IMG/VR virus record: IMGVR_UViG_2881684137_000004
Coordinates: 64,001-128,000 of that record
Reading direction: 5' to 3' (one strand)
Origin: a virus
Lineage: Duplodnaviria > Heunggongvirae > Uroviricota > Caudoviricetes
Length of the DNA stretch: 64,000 nt
A program made the position numbers and the translations under genes. The notes below the pieces were generated by a model. The model searched no databases. It saw nothing but the letters and a program-made list of their open reading frames with translations, and was not told where the DNA came from. Of this stretch, positions 2,410-54,742 are shown in pieces; the first letter of the stretch is position 1, and each line of letters begins with the position of its first letter.

Positions 2410-2673
2410 TTATTCTTCGTAATATGAAGACTCTTCCTCTTCATAGTAAGAACTGCTCTCTTCTTCATAATGATCTGAATCATCTCTGAATTTAGCAATA
2501 AGCTCCTCCGGTGTGACTAATAGTGGAACATTATTCTTTTCGGCATAGTGTTTAACTTCATACAATTTATTTTCTACATGTTCTAAAACATCTCCATAAT
2601 AGGTGTGAATATTCTCCTTAATAAAATCCTCAATCTCCATAATCTTTCTTGCAACATACATGAGGTTCTCCAT
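2410..2673 (-). CDS. Hypothetical protein with acidic Ser/Tyr tail
   Basis: C-terminus EEESSSYYEEEESSYYEE. Confidence 0.65.
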   Translation of the reverse strand: MENLMYVARKIMEIEDFIKENIHTYYGDVLEHVENKLYEVKHYAEKNNVPLLVTPEELIAKFRDDSDHYEEESSSYYEEEESSYYEE

Positions 2674-26778: not shown

Positions 26779-26864
26779 TACGGATAAAGGGACTTGAACC
26801 CTTATAATAGTTACCTATTGCAGCATTTTAAGTGCTGTATGTCTGCCAATTCCATCATATCCGC
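26779..26864 (-). tRNA. tRNA-Leu(TAA)
   Basis: Acceptor GCGGATA/TATCCGT, D-loop TGGCAGAC, CAGCA-CTTAAAA-TGCTG, long variable arm, GGTTCAAGTCC; no encoded CCA. Confidence 0.9.
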
Positions 26865-26870
26865 TTAGAG

Positions 26871-26944
26871 TGGGCCGTGGAGGACTCGAACCTCCGACTC
26901 CCTAGTTATGAGCTAGGTGCTCTAACCAACTGAACTAACGGCCC
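26871..26944 (-). tRNA. tRNA with CAT anticodon, probably Ile2 (lysidine) rather than Met
   Basis: GGGCCGT/ACGGCCC acceptor, CCTAG-CTCATAA-CTAGG, GGTTCGAGTCC; C4/C5 and CUCAUAA loop are Ile2-like; no encoded CCA. Confidence 0.9.
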
Positions 26945-27087: not shown

Positions 27088-27438
27088 CTAGATGGCCTCA
27101 CGTTGTCCGAAAGTTAGAAAACTCTCAGTTGTTGCAGTGATATTTTCAATGTCTCCATCAAAAAATTCACCCCATTTTTTAATATCTTCAATATTATTAA
27201 TTGTACGATCTAAATCTTTATAAGTCTTTGAATCTACTGGCAACCCACAAACGTGAATCATAAAATCCAAAAAATTTTCCCGGCTTTGTTCCCACTCTTC
27301 CAATAGTTGATCGTAATTCAATTCATACCCCTCCAAACATACTTTTTTTGTTTTGTCAAGAGAAATTGGAAGGCATGAATATACCTTTACGTTTCTTCTG
27401 TAGTGTTTTACAATAACACTATAGGAAAGAACAAGCAC
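27088..27438 (-). CDS. Hypothetical protein
   Basis: ORF track. Confidence 0.5.
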   Translation of the reverse strand: MLVLSYSVIVKHYRRNVKVYSCLPISLDKTKKVCLEGYELNYDQLLEEWEQSRENFLDFMIHVCGLPVDSKTYKDLDRTINNIEDIKKWGEFFDGDIENITATTESFLTFGQREAI

Positions 27439-27640
27439 TTATTTATGTGTCGGGCGCAATTCGATCATAAATATAGTGTTTTTTTTAAATCAATCCCTCT
27501 TTGATTTAAATTTACCACAATTTATCTCTAATGGTAAAGTGCAATCCATGTACAAAAATACTATCTTTACTATTAGAAAAATATATGCTTCAATTGCATA
27601 AAATGTCTAATCCTGTCGAATAGCTTCAACAAACTACCTT

Positions 27641-28102
27641 TTACCGAAAAACCCAACGTTTGTCGCGTAAACTCTCCTTGACATTCTCATCTACACATCC
27701 CAAATCCTTAAACTTTTTTTTGTTTGGCTTTGAAATTGTTGTGTACATGCCATTCTCAAAATAACATTTACCCATACCTGAACAGTATGACTTAACATTA
27801 TCAATATTAACAATAATTTTATTATCTGAGATAATAAAATTATATTTTTCAAGGAATTTTAGGCACATTTCATGATTCATGCTGTGTTTATATCTTTTGG
27901 CGTTTTTGTGATAAATAACAGTCTCTCTACCATCTCGATCAATGAAATTAATATCATTTATCCATATCCATTCAACTTCATTGGATTCGCCAATGACCTG
28001 CAACAGAGATTCAAACATCTTATTTAAGTTAAGAGTCAGACCTGCTATGTCATCTTTGTATTTATCGATGCTATTAATGACTTCCATGGTAATATTTTTC
28101 AT
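27641..28102 (-). CDS. LytTR DNA-binding-domain protein without a receiver domain
   Basis: WINDINFI...RETVIYH...FLEKYNFIISDNKIIVNIDNVKSY...CYFENG pattern; only ~45 aa precede it. Confidence 0.7.
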   Translation of the reverse strand: MKNITMEVINSIDKYKDDIAGLTLNLNKMFESLLQVIGESNEVEWIWINDINFIDRDGRETVIYHKNAKRYKHSMNHEMCLKFLEKYNFIISDNKIIVNIDNVKSYCSGMGKCYFENGMYTTISKPNKKKFKDLGCVDENVKESLRDKRWVFR

Positions 28103-28120
28103 TAATTCACCTTTTTTATT

Positions 28121-28149
28121 ACTAAGCCGCCAAGTATTGACGGCCTAGT
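28121..28149. other. Hairpin between agrD and lytTR
   Basis: Minus-strand ACUAGGCCGUCAA-UAC-UUGGCGGCUUAGU with G:U pairs. Confidence 0.6.
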
Positions 28150-28160
28150 ATTTTTAGTTC

Positions 28161-28292
28161 TTACTTTTTAACGTTTTTGAGTTCTTCTGGTACTTCTTGT
28201 TTATTTATGAACCAAGCGGAAGCACTCACTGCATGCTCGTATGCAGTTTTTTCAATAGTCTTTGAAGCAAGTTTAGCCACTAATTTTTTCAT
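28161..28292 (-). CDS. agrD: AgrD-like cyclic lactone autoinducer propeptide (43 aa, not in ORF track)
   Basis: MKKLVAKLASKTIEKTAYEHAVSASAWFINKQEVPEELKNVKK; AGGAAGGAGG RBS; amphipathic leader, SAWFI core, EVPEELK tail. Confidence 0.85.
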   Translation of the reverse strand: MKKLVAKLASKTIEKTAYEHAVSASAWFINKQEVPEELKNVKK

Positions 28293-28974
28293 CGATATTC
28301 CCTCCTTCCTCATTTTCTTCAAGGTCTCTTTTATATGCAAAGTACAGTAATGTACCTGTACTAAACAGCAACACTGTGAACATCAAATTAAAAACGTATC
28401 CATTATACTTTTCGACTGAGTACAAAACAAAGGCTCCAGTCGATACCAGAAAAATTAGAATAATAATAAACAATATAAACTTTTTAGTATATTTCTTTAT
28501 TAATCCGAATGGCTCATCCAGATCAAAGGAATAACCTTCATTGGTAATTTTGAGCGTAAACACTGTAGCCACAATTATAAAGAAACAAATCAATTGAATG
28601 AGATAGCCTTTGAAAGTGAAGGCTGCAATATCACTTACTGACACGATTTGGGCAAATGTCAATATTTTAATTAATGATATTTGTATTAGTCCATAAAACA
28701 CATATGATGTTATTGATACCAATGTAGCATGAGACCACTCTCTCTCCAGACTGGCTTTCAACAACAAAGTGTAAATCAGTATCTGTAGAAATGGAGCGAT
28801 ACTGGTTAAATCGAAAATTGTCAAAATTAACGAAAAGCTAGAGAGGAGTAATGATGATAACAGAATTTTTTTCACTCTTGCTAAGTTTAGTTTTATTCTA
28901 AAAAGATATACCCCCAATAAAAAAATTGAAAAATACTCGATTATTGAGAAAAGTATAAAATATATATATTTCAT
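28273..28974 (-). CDS. Polytopic membrane protein resembling an AgrC sensor domain without a kinase domain
   Basis: ~7 hydrophobic segments over 233 aa; ends ~20 aa after the last TM; between agrB and agrD. Confidence 0.65.
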   Translation of the reverse strand: MKYIYFILFSIIEYFSIFLLGVYLFRIKLNLARVKKILLSSLLLSSFSLILTIFDLTSIAPFLQILIYTLLLKASLEREWSHATLVSITSYVFYGLIQISLIKILTFAQIVSVSDIAAFTFKGYLIQLICFFIIVATVFTLKITNEGYSFDLDEPFGLIKKYTKKFILFIIILIFLVSTGAFVLYSVEKYNGYVFNLMFTVLLFSTGTLLYFAYKRDLEENEEGGNIDEKISG

Positions 28975-28980
28975 CTTGAT

Positions 28981-29511
28981 TCACCCAATCATCTTTTTAT
29001 TAGGAATTAGTAGTGTAAGGCTTTGAGCAAAAAAAGAAATAGTTACTGCATCTGAATGAACAAATAAAAAATTAATAGTTACTAAGCTTACTGAAATGAA
29101 TTTAAACAACATATTGGACAAAGCAGGATTCCTATATTGAGAGTCTATATCTCTAGGCGCTAAAATTAATAAAATAGCTATCGATAGAATATTTAAGAGT
29201 GCTGGAATATTATTCATTAGTACTGCTGATAATACGCATATTAGCATACTTGAAACGAGGACACAACTATCAGATTCTTTCAGGTGATACCCACCAGAAA
29301 AGTATCTTAGAGTTGCAAAAGAAATAATAATAATAAGCGTATCAATTGGTCTTCCAATAATAAAACCGAATACCATACTTATTAAAACAACTGCTAACCC
29401 ATTATAAATTATCCTTAACCCATAGTCTAAAACTTCGTAACTCGCAGTTTCTTCTTCGTTTATATTTTTTATGTATTTCGCTGTTTTACTAGATATTTTT
29501 TCAATTATCAA
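28981..29511 (-). CDS. agrB: AgrB-like peptide-processing membrane protease
   Basis: LRYFSGGYHLKESDSC with catalytic His/Cys; start re-called at TTG 29511 after GAGAGGAG RBS. Confidence 0.92.
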   Translation of the reverse strand: MIIEKISSKTAKYIKNINEEETASYEVLDYGLRIIYNGLAVVLISMVFGFIIGRPIDTLIIIISFATLRYFSGGYHLKESDSCVLVSSMLICVLSAVLMNNIPALLNILSIAILLILAPRDIDSQYRNPALSNMLFKFISVSLVTINFLFVHSDAVTISFFAQSLTLLIPNKKMIG

Positions 29512-29534
29512 AACTTCCTCTCCTCTCAAAAAAT

Positions 29535-29564
29535 ATATTACCATATCTTTCAACTTGCTGTCAA
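29535..29564 (-). promoter_or_regulatory. sigA-like promoter upstream of agrB
   Basis: TTGACA-N18-TAATAT with TG extension, in the yopR-agrB gap. Confidence 0.55.
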
Positions 29565-29588
29565 TATAAAATATAAAAAACCTCAAAA

Positions 29589-30560
29589 TTAATTTGAGGT
29601 TCCATAAACTGCTTGAATTGTCCCTAGATTTAAAAATTCATCTTTGATTCGACGTTGGTTTTGGACTCCATTTTCATCGAACTTTTCAAAGACAACTTTA
29701 AATTCTTCCTCATCTAGCTTCCCTGTGACATCATATAATTGCTTTGCTGTATAAAGCATGCCACTATTTATAATATTTCTCGGGATAAAAGATTGTTCAC
29801 CTATTTCATTTGCGATTTTAGTCAGGCGCCTATAAACTATATTTTTATCGGCTTCGTAAAAATTTATTGTCTTGGTATTCGCTGACTTAACTACAAAGTC
29901 ATTTTCGACCAAATTTGCTGTGGCCGATTTAATGTCTGGAGAAGGATTACCATTCATTTTTTCATATTCAGTTTCAGCTGCCGCTTTAAAACATAGTCTG
30001 ATGCAGTTATCATCCACTGTAAGTTCTCTACTGGTCTTATTAGACCTTAAAACTAGTGTATTATCTGATTCTCTTATATCTTTCCTTTGTAGGTTGACGA
30101 CCTCCTGTAGACCGTCTCCTGACACGCCATTAAATAACAAACTTACGACAACAGCATCTTGGTAATTAACTTGATTTTTTATAATCTCATCAATTTCTTT
30201 AGCAGTCCAAAGTGTTTTAGCTTTGGATGTTACAAATTGCTCTTTCCAATCGCTATCCACCGTTAGCAAGGGGTTAACTCCCTTAATATAACCTTTAACA
30301 ATTGACCATTCTATATACTTAGATATCCAACTAATGTTAAACTTTGATACATACGAAGTTCCTGGTTTAAAGCTGTAAAAAAGTCTCTTTAATTCATCAC
30401 GGTCGAATTCTGATAAATCTTTATCTAGAACCATTTCGCTCGTATGTGACAACTTAAAGAACCTCAACACTACCATTTGAGTGCTATTTTCATACTGAGA
30501 TAAGAATTCAACTTTTCTTTCTCGATTAAAAAGCTTATCCATATTCACAACATTACTCAT
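29589..30560 (-). CDS. yopR: SPbeta YopR (MrpR/SroF)-like master repressor, tyrosine-recombinase fold
   Basis: VNYQDAVVVSLLFNGVSG, AAAETEYEKMNG, LVENDFVVK, PRNIINSGMLY match recalled YopR blocks; catalytic R/HxxR absent. Confidence 0.8.
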   Translation of the reverse strand: MSNVVNMDKLFNRERKVEFLSQYENSTQMVVLRFFKLSHTSEMVLDKDLSEFDRDELKRLFYSFKPGTSYVSKFNISWISKYIEWSIVKGYIKGVNPLLTVDSDWKEQFVTSKAKTLWTAKEIDEIIKNQVNYQDAVVVSLLFNGVSGDGLQEVVNLQRKDIRESDNTLVLRSNKTSRELTVDDNCIRLCFKAAAETEYEKMNGNPSPDIKSATANLVENDFVVKSANTKTINFYEADKNIVYRRLTKIANEIGEQSFIPRNIINSGMLYTAKQLYDVTGKLDEEEFKVVFEKFDENGVQNQRRIKDEFLNLGTIQAVYGTSN

Positions 30561-30580: not shown

Positions 30581-31936
30581 TCAAAGTAAACCAGCAATCT
30601 TTTCTTCAGCATACTTTTTCAGATTCCGTTTCACCTGGTTACTATTTACTTTGCCTTTTCCCTCAGCGAATAAGACTTTGCTGTATTCACCATCAAACGA
30701 GTAGTCAAATGACTCAACCAATCTGATAATTTCATCCGCTGGGATGTCTTTACCATATTTATCATACAATGCTTTTGCAATTACAAGATATACAACAAAA
30801 GTGTTGTGGTAGTTCCTCAAGCTTGATTTCCTTGCTTTTATTAAAGTCTCTAAATTACTACTGAATTCATCTTTATAACTGTCAACAACGTAATCAAAGA
30901 AATAGACCAATACACTGGCGATATTAATACGATCGGCATTATTTTGTGGATCGAAAATATCTCTTATGCCTTTGGACAATACATTAAAGCTTGTCAGGTA
31001 AGAACGTTTAGAACTAACAGTTGCTTCTTTTGCAATTCTTCCTCTGAGAACCGATTTTCTTTCAATTTCAATTGCAATCTTATCTTCGAGAGTGTCATTC
31101 ATAAGGTAGTTTACAAACGACTTATCAAATTTCGACATTTTATTAATCTGTCCCAAATAGAATCTTGCATCGTCAAAACTTAAGTACTTAATCGCTACAT
31201 CAATTGAATCCTCAAGGTCAGGATCTTGTTCGAGTCTGTTAAGGATTGCAGACAGTCTGTGAAATCCGTCAATAATATACATATCTCCAGAGATGAGTGT
31301 TAGTTCACCAGCATCATATGAAATATCAGATTTGTCATCCATGATGACACAAAAAGTGATAGTATTACTTCTGAACATACCACGTTCCATTAAATTGGTG
31401 ATTTCTTTGACGGATTTAGATATTACTTTAGGCGTTGTTGTTGTATTACCTTTTTTATCAGTCTTTTCTTTAGGTTTACGTTGTAAATCAGTATTATAAA
31501 AAAGTATTTTATTCCATAGTTTCCCAACTTCTTTAAATTTTAAAGAGGTAATATAATCATGTTCAGATGATTGAACAACATAGTTTCCGAATGTATAAGG
31601 TAGCTTCACTTCTTCTTCTTTATGATTCTTTTTGTATTTATTGATGGCACCAATTTGCTTTTGGTTCCAAAAAAACTCTGGGTTTAAATTTTCACTCTTT
31701 GTTGCAATGTAAATTGCATTAACAATAACCCCTTGTTCAAGTGCTGAGTATTGTTCTAATGCTTCTAAATTAGTCAGAATTTCTTCTAGCGTACCAGGGA
31801 GTATTTTGTGCGACAATAAAGTTTCATTGATATTTTCTTGCAAATCTTTATTATTTATAATCTCATGGATCACACTGCTTGAAGATAGTTCTTCAATGAT
31901 CTTAGTGGTTGTTTCTGCTGCTGGCATCTTTATCAT
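30581..31936 (-). CDS. yopQ: SPbeta YopQ (SroE)-like DGQHR/DndB-family protein
   Basis: IIDGFHRL, QR motif, KILPGT, LPYTF; directly upstream of the yopR homolog as in SPbeta. Confidence 0.75.
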   Translation of the reverse strand: MIKMPAAETTTKIIEELSSSSVIHEIINNKDLQENINETLLSHKILPGTLEEILTNLEALEQYSALEQGVIVNAIYIATKSENLNPEFFWNQKQIGAINKYKKNHKEEEVKLPYTFGNYVVQSSEHDYITSLKFKEVGKLWNKILFYNTDLQRKPKEKTDKKGNTTTTPKVISKSVKEITNLMERGMFRSNTITFCVIMDDKSDISYDAGELTLISGDMYIIDGFHRLSAILNRLEQDPDLEDSIDVAIKYLSFDDARFYLGQINKMSKFDKSFVNYLMNDTLEDKIAIEIERKSVLRGRIAKEATVSSKRSYLTSFNVLSKGIRDIFDPQNNADRINIASVLVYFFDYVVDSYKDEFSSNLETLIKARKSSLRNYHNTFVVYLVIAKALYDKYGKDIPADEIIRLVESFDYSFDGEYSKVLFAEGKGKVNSNQVKRNLKKYAEEKIAGLL

Positions 31937-54259: not shown

Positions 54260-54625
54260 TTAATTTAGTTTGCGTCCAACACTTATATCAAGAGCGTCAA
54301 ATACTTTTTCCATGTCTTCTTCAGAGATTTCTGTCTTTTTTTCAATCAAACGATCTTTATCGATCGTTCTTAGTTGTTCAGCTAGCACATAACTATCGTG
54401 CTCTAATTTGTTTTTATCTTTATCCAAAAAAACATGAGTTGGCATTAGTTTTTTTACTTTTGTTGTTAGGCAAGCCACTACAGTAGTAGGGCTAAAACGG
54501 TTGCCGATATCATTTTGAACAATTAATACAGTTCTCAAACCTCCCTGCTCCGAACCAACCACTCCAGACATGTCAGCATACCATACTTCTCTTCTTTTAT
54601 AGGTTCTCATTTTTATGTACCTCAT
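54260..54625 (-). CDS. mazF: PemK/MazF-family endoribonuclease (NdoA-like)
   Basis: VWYADMSGVVGSEQGGLRTVLIVQNDIGNRFSPTTVVACLTT. Confidence 0.92.
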   Translation of the reverse strand: MRYIKMRTYKRREVWYADMSGVVGSEQGGLRTVLIVQNDIGNRFSPTTVVACLTTKVKKLMPTHVFLDKDKNKLEHDSYVLAEQLRTIDKDRLIEKKTEISEEDMEKVFDALDISVGRKLN

Positions 54626-54683: not shown

Positions 54684-54742
54684 TGGAACAAATGTTCTAT
54701 TTTATTTTAAGTCAATACTCATCTTTGTAACAACAATTAATA

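Follow-up and report, generated by a model that had tools for sequence, protein, structure and literature searches.

An agr-like gene cassette with a stand-alone AgrC-type sensor homologue and a LytTR-only regulator at the lysogeny junction of a large SPbeta-like prophage

A 64,000-nucleotide stretch of a Caudoviricetes virus (positions 64,001 to 128,000 of IMG/VR record IMGVR_UViG_2881684137_000004; hereafter the window) carries on its minus strand, at positions 27641-29564, a compact cassette of four genes that encode, in the order of transcription, an AgrB peptidase, a stand-alone seven-helix membrane protein (the 7TM protein), an AgrD peptide precursor and a DNA-binding protein with a LytTR domain and no receiver. 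With modest confidence, we favour the view that this cassette is a phage-borne copy of a widespread, undescribed agr variant that works without phosphotransfer, and we read it as agr signalling re-wired in the manner of the streptococcal LytTR regulatory systems (LRS). In support of this view, the 7TM protein belongs to a large family homologous to the sensor domain of AgrC-type receptors, the prophage around the cassette gave no receiver or kinase match, and the cassette recurs with the same parts in bacteria and in phages.

The window corresponds to G000:C22:248198-312197 and lies inside a low-GC island (31-37% GC, about 33%) of ~220 kb (C22 roughly 185-405 kb), the edges of which are set by the GC shift only, in a host genome of 7.7 Mb with 48-52% GC. 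Since many of its genes match phage families (in the window a Sak4-like annealing protein, a phrog_2367 pair, MrpR and a yopQ homologue), we take the island to be a very large SPbeta-like prophage. Its ~220 kb would be an unusually large size for a temperate SPbeta-like phage. The minus strand is the coding strand of nearly all window genes, and all features below lie on it. The host probably belongs to the Paenibacillaceae, given that the named relatives of the cassette proteins come from Cohnella, Paenibacillus or Brevibacillus or from their phages.

Gene content of the cassette

The sequence-only reading of this DNA had described an operon with a promoter of its own, and this description holds: a sigma-A promoter (TTGACA, 18 nt, TGgTAATAT; 29535..29564; scan match 10/12 plus the TG extension) stands behind the mrpR terminator and is followed by the four minus-strand genes. 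The end of the operon had been placed at 29564, which correctly takes in the promoter, as this is the first base of the -35 hexamer, but agrB itself begins further in. The agrB gene (28981..29511, 176 aa) matches PF04647 with an E-value of 1.7e-20, and the catalytic residues reported for it, GGYH...C, are present as a GG[YF]H...C pattern with the His/Cys pair 7 residues apart and invariant in comparison with two paralogues. From the sequence, its start is most likely TTG 29511, which is preceded by the ribosome-binding site AGAGGAGAGGAAG; a start at 29586 was set aside in favour of it. The membrane gene follows (28273..28974, 233 aa), and the agrD gene (28161..28292) encodes a 43-aa precursor with the predicted ring SAWFI that matches TIGR04223 along the full model (E 0.0018). 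The agrD gene has the ribosome-binding site GAAGGAGG and begins at ATG 28292, overlapping the final 20 nt of the membrane gene, to which it is translationally coupled, in agreement with the coupling noted earlier.

The last gene (27641..28102, start ATG 28102) encodes the LytTR protein of 153 aa, in which PF04397 (E 3e-8, residues 45-134) is the only domain; it has no receiver domain, as the sequence-only reading had stated, and no transmembrane part, and it aligns with 14 LytTR proteins of other cassettes of 110-156 aa. That reading had also found no other histidine kinase (HK) or response regulator in the window, and the statement could be widened to the entire prophage. When home-made profile hidden Markov models (HMMs) of the receiver (REC) and of the AgrC-type HK core were run over the whole genome, they matched zero frames in the 222 kb prophage, against 60 REC and 27 HK frames elsewhere in the genome.

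The seven-helix membrane protein

The 7TM protein had no match among Pfam, NCBIfam or PDB sequence profiles. Its AlphaFold2 model (88-sequence alignment) shows seven helices with a pLDDT of 93.6 and a pTM of 0.90, which bears out the earlier count of about seven, and the chain ends ~10 residues past the cytoplasmic extension of helix 7, with no DHp or ATPase domain. The spread of Lys and Arg over the loops, as read from the sequence, agrees with an N-out, C-in topology. Four positions are near-invariant (E13 in helix 1, F25, S48 and Q98), and a cytoplasmic loop motif (consensus GFxFVP) and a YxSxKKD-like tail are conserved in the family.

A profile of the three copies from this genome, compared with 1.84 billion representatives, retrieved 548 representative clusters at E<=1e-3, of which 318 reach E<=1e-10; among the 548, the top 150 measure 153-293 aa, nearly all of them 200-250 aa, and the named members are all 'hypothetical protein' from Cohnella or Paenibacillus. 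Homologue searches by word index, with the protein or with its alignment as query, returned the query alone and then 6 matches, and neither megablast with the region nor tblastn with the 7TM protein gave a match among 50,697 phage records. A Foldseek comparison of the model with PDB and Swiss-Prot models yielded generic 7TM noise only (TM about 0.2-0.3). In the AlphaFold cluster library and the ESM Atlas, the fold matched, beyond the family itself, the N-terminal membrane parts of GHKL-domain, HATPase_c_5, SPOB_a and ComD-named proteins, at TM 0.54-0.68.

The relation to AgrC-type sensors is seen more strongly at the sequence level. In 401 sampled Bacilli genomes the family profile matched stand-alone frames of 193-270 aa over their full length (E 1e-17 to 1e-61) and, in addition, the first ~210 residues of frames of 413-467 aa (E 1e-6 to 1e-18). 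All six of the long frames that were fetched immediately precede agrB. L091 among them is a true kinase (SPOB_a plus HATPase_c_5) whose residues 1-212 are matched by the profile, with an E-value of 1.5e-9 in the genome-wide search and 1.5e-12 in a second comparison, and the other five AgrB-linked proteins (413-450 aa) match the family profile at 1e-16 to 1e-21. These five are encoded at L087 1895-3145, L088 1946-3298, L089 2288-3553, L090 2433-3674 and L092 1734-2999. Their C-terminal ~200 aa had no Pfam match at default settings, nor did four of them at a laxer threshold, and one compared with the PDB had none there; this part could represent a transmitter domain that is either degenerate or new. 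A REC+LytTR regulator stands behind the long receptor in L088. L005, an AgrC-like kinase of the host that lacks an adjacent agrB, gave no match to the profile. The helix 1 residue E13 is common to all AgrB-linked receptor forms, and the order receptor-agrB-agrD-regulator is identical in kinase-bearing and kinase-less forms.

Among the frames found in the family searches there was no fusion of a 7TM domain with LytTR. The sequence-only reading had allowed that homologues might expose the membrane gene as a truncated AgrC remnant. They do not, as the gene belongs to a large stand-alone family, adjoins agrB and is homologous to the sensor domains of AgrB-linked receptors. Profiles and structure models, the comparison with the N-terminal part of AgrC that had been proposed, thus agree in sequence and in fold: the 7TM protein is a member of a stand-alone family and a homologue of the AgrC-type sensor domain, and not a decayed AgrC.

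Occurrence in bacteria and phages

The neighbourhood survey found the 7TM gene next to agrB in every bacterial and IMG/VR locus covered, with a LytTR-only gene as its usual companion. Among the 30 best bacterial loci, all from Bacilli, the 7TM gene adjoins agrB in 30/30; a LytTR-only gene (110-136 aa) lies behind the cassette in 20, a longer LytTR protein (242-253 aa) in three, and in the remaining seven no LytTR gene was detected within the short flank. Pfam, run on two of the longer proteins, found a receiver in that of L067 and LytTR alone in that of L083. The 7TM family is present in 43 of the 401 Bacilli genomes, mainly in the host's own family (16/33) and in one other (15/34). IMG/VR loci found by an AgrB alignment have the 7TM gene in 12 of 12 cases, with a LytTR-only gene visible in 10. 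Cultured phages carry the cassette as well, namely the Brevibacillus phages Abouo, Davies and Emery and the Paenibacillus larvae phages Harrison and Paisley.

The host itself holds two further complete sets in the order 7TM-AgrB-AgrD-LytTR, at C61 and C33, and identity between the phage receptor and those of the host is only 20-25%. A fourth host locus, just outside the prophage (C22 421.6-422.9 kb; L093 2629-3875), is a 7TM-AgrD-LytTR trio without agrB. Its 7TM gene encodes 221 aa that are 43% identical to the C33 copy, its AgrD has the ring SYLFI and its LytTR-only protein measures 128 aa; as a receptor-regulator pair, the trio may depend on the AgrB of C33.

The constant neighbourhood of the two membrane genes could also be explained if the 7TM protein were a partner of AgrB in making or exporting the peptide or in immunity to it, like MroQ or an exporter in S. 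aureus, with the LytTR protein under a different control, such as peptide taken back into the cell. The frequent overlap of the 7TM gene with agrB, which it always adjoins, and the translational coupling of agrD to the 7TM gene in the window would be in keeping with such a role, and extra membrane proteins are required for the maturation of the S. aureus autoinducing peptide (AIP), according to PMC9388083 and bioRxiv 2026.09.29.755489. We nevertheless find this explanation improbable, given that sequence and fold both relate the protein by homology to the sensor part of receptors linked to AgrB, among them a true kinase, that it holds the agrC position in the C-B-D-A order, and that it bears no protease or transporter signature. 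The host trio, which lost agrB and kept 7TM, AgrD and LytTR, is likewise a better fit to a receptor-regulator pair.

AgrD and the predicted peptide

The window AgrD was aligned with 39 others, giving 40 distinct cassette AgrDs, on the (V/I/A)PxEL motif. In the window sequence SAWFI-NKQE-VPEEL, a Ser stands 10 residues before the Pro of VPEEL, and Ser is also found at this position in most cassettes, while Cys occurs there in two of the 40. The S. aureus AgrD-I (YSTCDFIMDEVEVPKEL) has its ring Cys 10 residues before the Pro. We infer from this register that the phage signal would be a Ser-linked lactone of SAWFI with an N-terminal tail.

A third class of AgrD lacks both Cys and Ser at the ring position and shows a conserved Lys at -9 from the Pro of PxEL. 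It comprises the host C61 copy (L001 1994-2113), those of L059-L064, L069-L071, L024, L034 and L066, and the phage sequences Abouo gp46 (L035 4019-4147) and Harrison 40 (L036 4016-4144). The Lys hints, at the level of sequence, at autoinducers with a lactam ring, and we know of no report of such autoinducers. As to the genus, AgrB and AgrD of Paenibacillus yield peptides active at the nanomolar level, and the 2025 study of the Paenibacillus polymyxa AIP does not treat the receptor (PMC12180512).

The ring SAWFI and the tail INKQEVPEEL of the phage AgrD are closer to those of the host copies at C33 (SYFLI-NKPEIPEEL) and in the trio (SYLFI-NKPEMPEEL) than to the AgrDs of other phages, and cross-talk between phage and host is therefore possible. 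The same resemblance would suit a cassette that interferes with agr-type signalling of the host and depends on host parts, whether its receptor served as a decoy, its LytTR protein competed for promoters, or its peptide acted as agonist or antagonist. Targets would be at hand, as three related systems exist in the host, besides several HATPase_c_5 kinases accompanied by LytTR regulators. We give this idea little credence: the cassette is complete and on paper self-sufficient, the low identity of the phage receptor to the host receptors does not favour it, and phages of several host genera carry the full cassette.

Position at the lysogeny junction

The cassette lies directly behind the lysogeny gene pair of the prophage, the order of minus-strand transcription being yopQ-like, mrpR-like, terminator, promoter, agrB, 7TM gene, agrD and LytTR gene. 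The first gene of the pair (30581..31936) is DndB-like (PF14072, E 4.2e-6) and matches phrog_5732 with an E-value of 1.2e-69; it is 28% identical to yopQ of SPBc2 (tblastn, E 4e-23). The second (29589..30560) encodes an MrpR (YopR)-like master repressor with the domains MrpR_N_CB (PF22822, E 2.8e-23) and MrpR_C_cat (PF22823, E 2.9e-22), and it is the only MrpR of the genome. MrpR is the master repressor that binds the SPBRE sites (PMC10516654). A terminator-like hairpin (29577..29603), with an 11-pair stem and then a T run directly after the mrpR stop, closes the pair, and only ~12 nt separate it from the -35 hexamer of the cassette promoter. Related phage loci keep the same terminator layout, and in the MrpR-linked loci a strong cassette promoter stands a few bases past the mrpR terminator (e.g. 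L023, L026, L030, L031, L033).

On the other side of the cassette, the motif TTCGACA-N4-TAGACA is found together with a promoter-like site (TAGACA, 18 nt, TATATT) at 27580..27620, as an exact match and by promoter scan, respectively. The window copy, TTCGACAGGATTAGACA at 27604-27620, lies downstream of the cassette and overlaps the promoter-like site. The motif is 3' of the cassette in seven viral loci (six distinct stretches; L023, L026, L030, L031, L032 and L033), and in SPbeta it stands directly behind the mrpR terminator (L037 10333-10349), where the order is aimR-aimP-(aimX)-yopM-N-O-P-yopQ-yopR(mrpR), terminator, TTCGACA-N4-TAGACA, SPBRE palindrome and early genes. As the motif follows the cassette here and the terminator in SPbeta, we regard the cassette as inserted where the lysogeny operon meets the early region, at a conserved junction of the backbone. 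SPbeta and the cassette-bearing relatives keep a form TTCGACA-N4-(T/C/G)(A/G)GACA where the early region begins.

An IMG/VR scan with an MrpR alignment, using patterns from cassette-linked MrpRs, gave 18 viral loci. The arrangement yopQ-mrpR-cassette is present in 15/18, a share that shows conservation inside one clade and overstates the frequency among all MrpR phages, because the sample was drawn with cassette-linked MrpR patterns. In one of them, L043, AgrB precedes the 7TM gene, as in the window, and the three loci without a cassette are fragments estimated to be 7-31% complete. AimR, the receptor of the arbitrium system, was sought with PF22871; there was no match in the complete host genome, while a B. 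subtilis control matched, and it was not found in four complete cassette phages of 160-218 kb either. In L022 a 450-aa helix-turn-helix protein and then a 38-aa open reading frame (ORF) lie upstream of yopQ-mrpR-cassette (L022 1-337), with no AimR Pfam match on record; these two may be an RRNPP-type pair that coexists with the cassette.

Because it sits at a lysogeny-control site, and AimR was not found in the carriers checked, the cassette is a concrete candidate for a viral communication system. A quite different use of the same genes would be lysogenic conversion, the cassette being a moron, a self-contained quorum-sensing unit that the phage gives to its host to regulate host genes such as those for secondary metabolites, sporulation or competition, possibly by the very mechanism that we propose. 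Like an inserted moron, the cassette has a strong promoter of its own, with a terminator on one side and a conserved backbone motif on the other. It is also common in chromosomes away from phages (the two complete host copies and the 30 Bacilli loci), no phage operator was found for the LytTR protein, and Paenibacillus AIPs control antibiotic gene clusters (PMC12180512). The insertion site speaks against a moron, being kept directly behind mrpR in the related viral loci, as do the 45 kb phages Abouo and Harrison, in which the cassette lies beside integrase and repressor genes, and the lack of AimR in the cassette phages checked. The distance between the phage proteins and the host copies, at only 20-25% identity, moreover excludes a recent pick-up from this host. 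Taking both sides together, we consider the moron explanation rather unlikely.

Proposed mechanism and points against it

In the phosphotransfer-free scheme that we favour, AgrB would cut the C-terminal tail of the 43-aa AgrD and close a five-residue ring, and the product, predicted to be the lactone cyclo(SAWFI) linked through Ser and bearing a short tail at its N-terminus, would be released from the cell. The 233-aa seven-helix protein would amount to the AgrC sensor module alone and bind the peptide outside the cell. Since the LytTR protein has no receiver domain to phosphorylate and the receptor no kinase, the receptor would have to act by direct contact, holding the LytTR-only protein at the membrane or releasing it in an LRS-like manner, and the cytoplasmic loop (GFxFVP) and the tail (YxSxKKD-like) are the candidate contact surfaces. 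Direct protein-protein control of LytTR by the receptor appears to be the shortest and most economical path from this set of genes, and we lean towards it, if only slightly. The sign of regulation and the target genes, like the peptide's structure, its binding and the receptor-LytTR contact, are what we infer from the gene set.

The cassette would be expressed in lysogens and would report the density of cells that carry this phage; expression at that stage is expected from its constitutive-looking promoter, placed right after the yopQ-mrpR terminator and just before the early lytic region. Its output could bear on the balance of lysis and lysogeny or on superinfection, in the place that arbitrium holds in SPbeta. 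A role in either phage decision is a tentative suggestion that we hold with evident doubt. Equally speculative is the joint proposal that SPbeta-like and other temperate Bacillota phages have here a second, independent phage-phage communication system, built on a cyclic lactone, a kinase-less receptor and direct gating of LytTR, in which LytTR would set lysis or lysogeny together with MrpR, as a replacement of arbitrium and as the first agr-type pathway without phosphotransfer.

Several observations weigh against this scheme. Mixed architectures exist, and a kinase may for this reason still take part in some lineages: L067 and L068 combine a stand-alone 7TM protein (214 aa) and AgrB with a REC+LytTR regulator (253 aa), and in L022 (5923-7636) a REC-LytTR gene and a small HATPase_c_5 gene (276 aa) come after the full cassette. 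No LytTR operator was found, either near the cassette or in the intergenic DNA of the prophage. Direct repeats of 9-10 bp at 19-23 bp spacing are absent upstream and downstream of the cassette in the window and in 15 related loci, and the intergenic DNA of the prophage holds 22 repeat pairs, compared with about 10 expected, none of them recurring. Repeats upstream would have no room, as the cassette promoter sits right behind the mrpR terminator. The promoter itself is without any sign of autoinduction, unlike agr P2 and the LRS operons, and the promoter-terminator framing also fits a moron that serves the host and not the phage decision. The AgrD score against TIGR04223, 18.4 bits, is slightly below the curated cutoff of 19, and the sampling behind the viral MrpR loci inflates the apparent frequency of the cassette.

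Two candidate sites for the LytTR protein were rejected. The sole triple repeat (window 2591-2643) lies inside a coding region, and the TTCGACA-N6-GACA motif downstream of the cassette is present at the same backbone position in SPbeta, which has no cassette.

Neighbouring features

The leader between the cassette and the next gene contains an inverted repeat, TTTACCA-N14-TGGTAAA (window 27511-27538), as a possible operator. The gene itself is a small acidic ORF of 77 aa (27088..27321), read from TTG 27321 with the ribosome-binding site GGAGGGG; it had no match in Pfam or PHROG and takes the place of a gene of 124-141 aa found behind the cassette in related phages. Beyond it follow tRNA-Leu(taa) and tRNA-Met(cat) (window 26779-26944), and next come the early genes, with the phrog_2367 pair and Sak4; the related phages continue with the same early genes. 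A promoter with a LexA box (GAACxxxxGTTC) lies behind the cassette in L023, L026, L031 and L033 and is degenerate in L030; no LexA box was found behind the cassette in the window. The sole perfect LexA-type box of the window, GAACAAATGTTC at 54686-54697, is just upstream of a mazF-like gene (54260-54625).

Comparison with known systems

Full-text literature searches retrieved no account of the four genes as one unit and none that connects AgrB to LytTR regulatory systems. The agr system is the standard textbook example of how a histidine kinase senses a peptide, and a widespread version without both phosphotransfer domains, which retains peptide production and the membrane domain of the sensor, if true, would be a different route for a signal from the cell surface to DNA, while the LytTR regulatory systems would gain a defined ligand. 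The cultured Brevibacillus and Paenibacillus phages offer experimental access to the question.

With canonical agr the cassette shares the His/Cys pair of AgrB, the ring position of AgrD 10 residues before the Pro of VPxEL, the membrane domain of an AgrC-type receptor, LytTR as DNA-binding output and, in most cassettes, the gene order; the canonical form agrC-agrB-agrD-agrA is seen in other Bacilli (L091, L088). However, AgrC has DHp and a GHKL ATPase and AgrA a receiver, all of which the phage cassette lacks. Canonical agr has a ring Cys where the window AgrD has Ser, it carries AgrA-type direct repeats at the operon promoter that were not found at the phage cassette promoter, and in the window agrB precedes the receptor gene.

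The sequence-only reading had drawn a parallel to the streptococcal systems HdrRM and BrsRM, and it stands as a functional one. These LRS likewise place a soluble LytTR-only regulator beside a kinase-less polytopic membrane protein (PMC6193735), and they share with the scheme proposed here the logic of a relay from membrane to DNA without phosphorylation, a likeness of function only. The parallel does not extend to gene order, promoter repeats or the membrane protein. LRS operons consist of two genes with the regulator first, whereas in the window the membrane gene lies upstream and agrD stands between it and the LytTR gene (in other cassettes both agrB and agrD lie between the 7TM and LytTR genes). 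They have 9-bp direct repeats about 10 bp upstream of the -35 and positive feedback (PMC6193735), and such repeats were not found in the window or in related loci. The LRS membrane protein carries DUF2154, which is not present in the 7TM protein of the window, a member of the AgrC-sensor lineage, and LRS have no peptide-synthesis genes, in contrast to the agrB and agrD of the phage cassette.

The likeness to arbitrium (AimR-AimP-AimX of SPbeta and phi3T), which also places a peptide module in the lysogeny-control region of SPbeta-like phages with yopQ-mrpR, is one of function alone: its proteins have no relation to those of the cassette, its signal AimP, a linear hexapeptide, is recognised by AimR within the cell, and the module sits upstream of yopM-yopR and not, like the cassette, downstream of mrpR. 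The C. difficile phage phiCDHM1, which the sequence-only reading had cited as a carrier of agrB, agrC and agrD, is indeed a temperate phage with agrB, agrD and a receptor gene (PMC3901668). It lacks AgrA, whereas the present cassette joins a kinase-less receptor to a LytTR-only regulator, and a 2025 review goes no further than phage agrB/agrC/agrD without AgrA.

Close counterparts are Abouo gp44-gp47 and Harrison 38-41; their LytTR genes are annotated as 'peptidase', and the papers on these phages only tabulate AgrB. These are 45 kb phages with the order 7TM-AgrB-AgrD-LytTR, their cassettes lie beside integrase and repressor genes and not beside mrpR, and their AgrDs have the conserved Lys, with no Ser or Cys at the ring position. 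Their 7TM proteins match at E 1e-39 to 1e-42 and their LytTR-only proteins at E 1e-8 to 1e-17, the AgrD measures 42 aa, and what they share with the prophage described here is the same four genes in the lysogeny region of a temperate phage.

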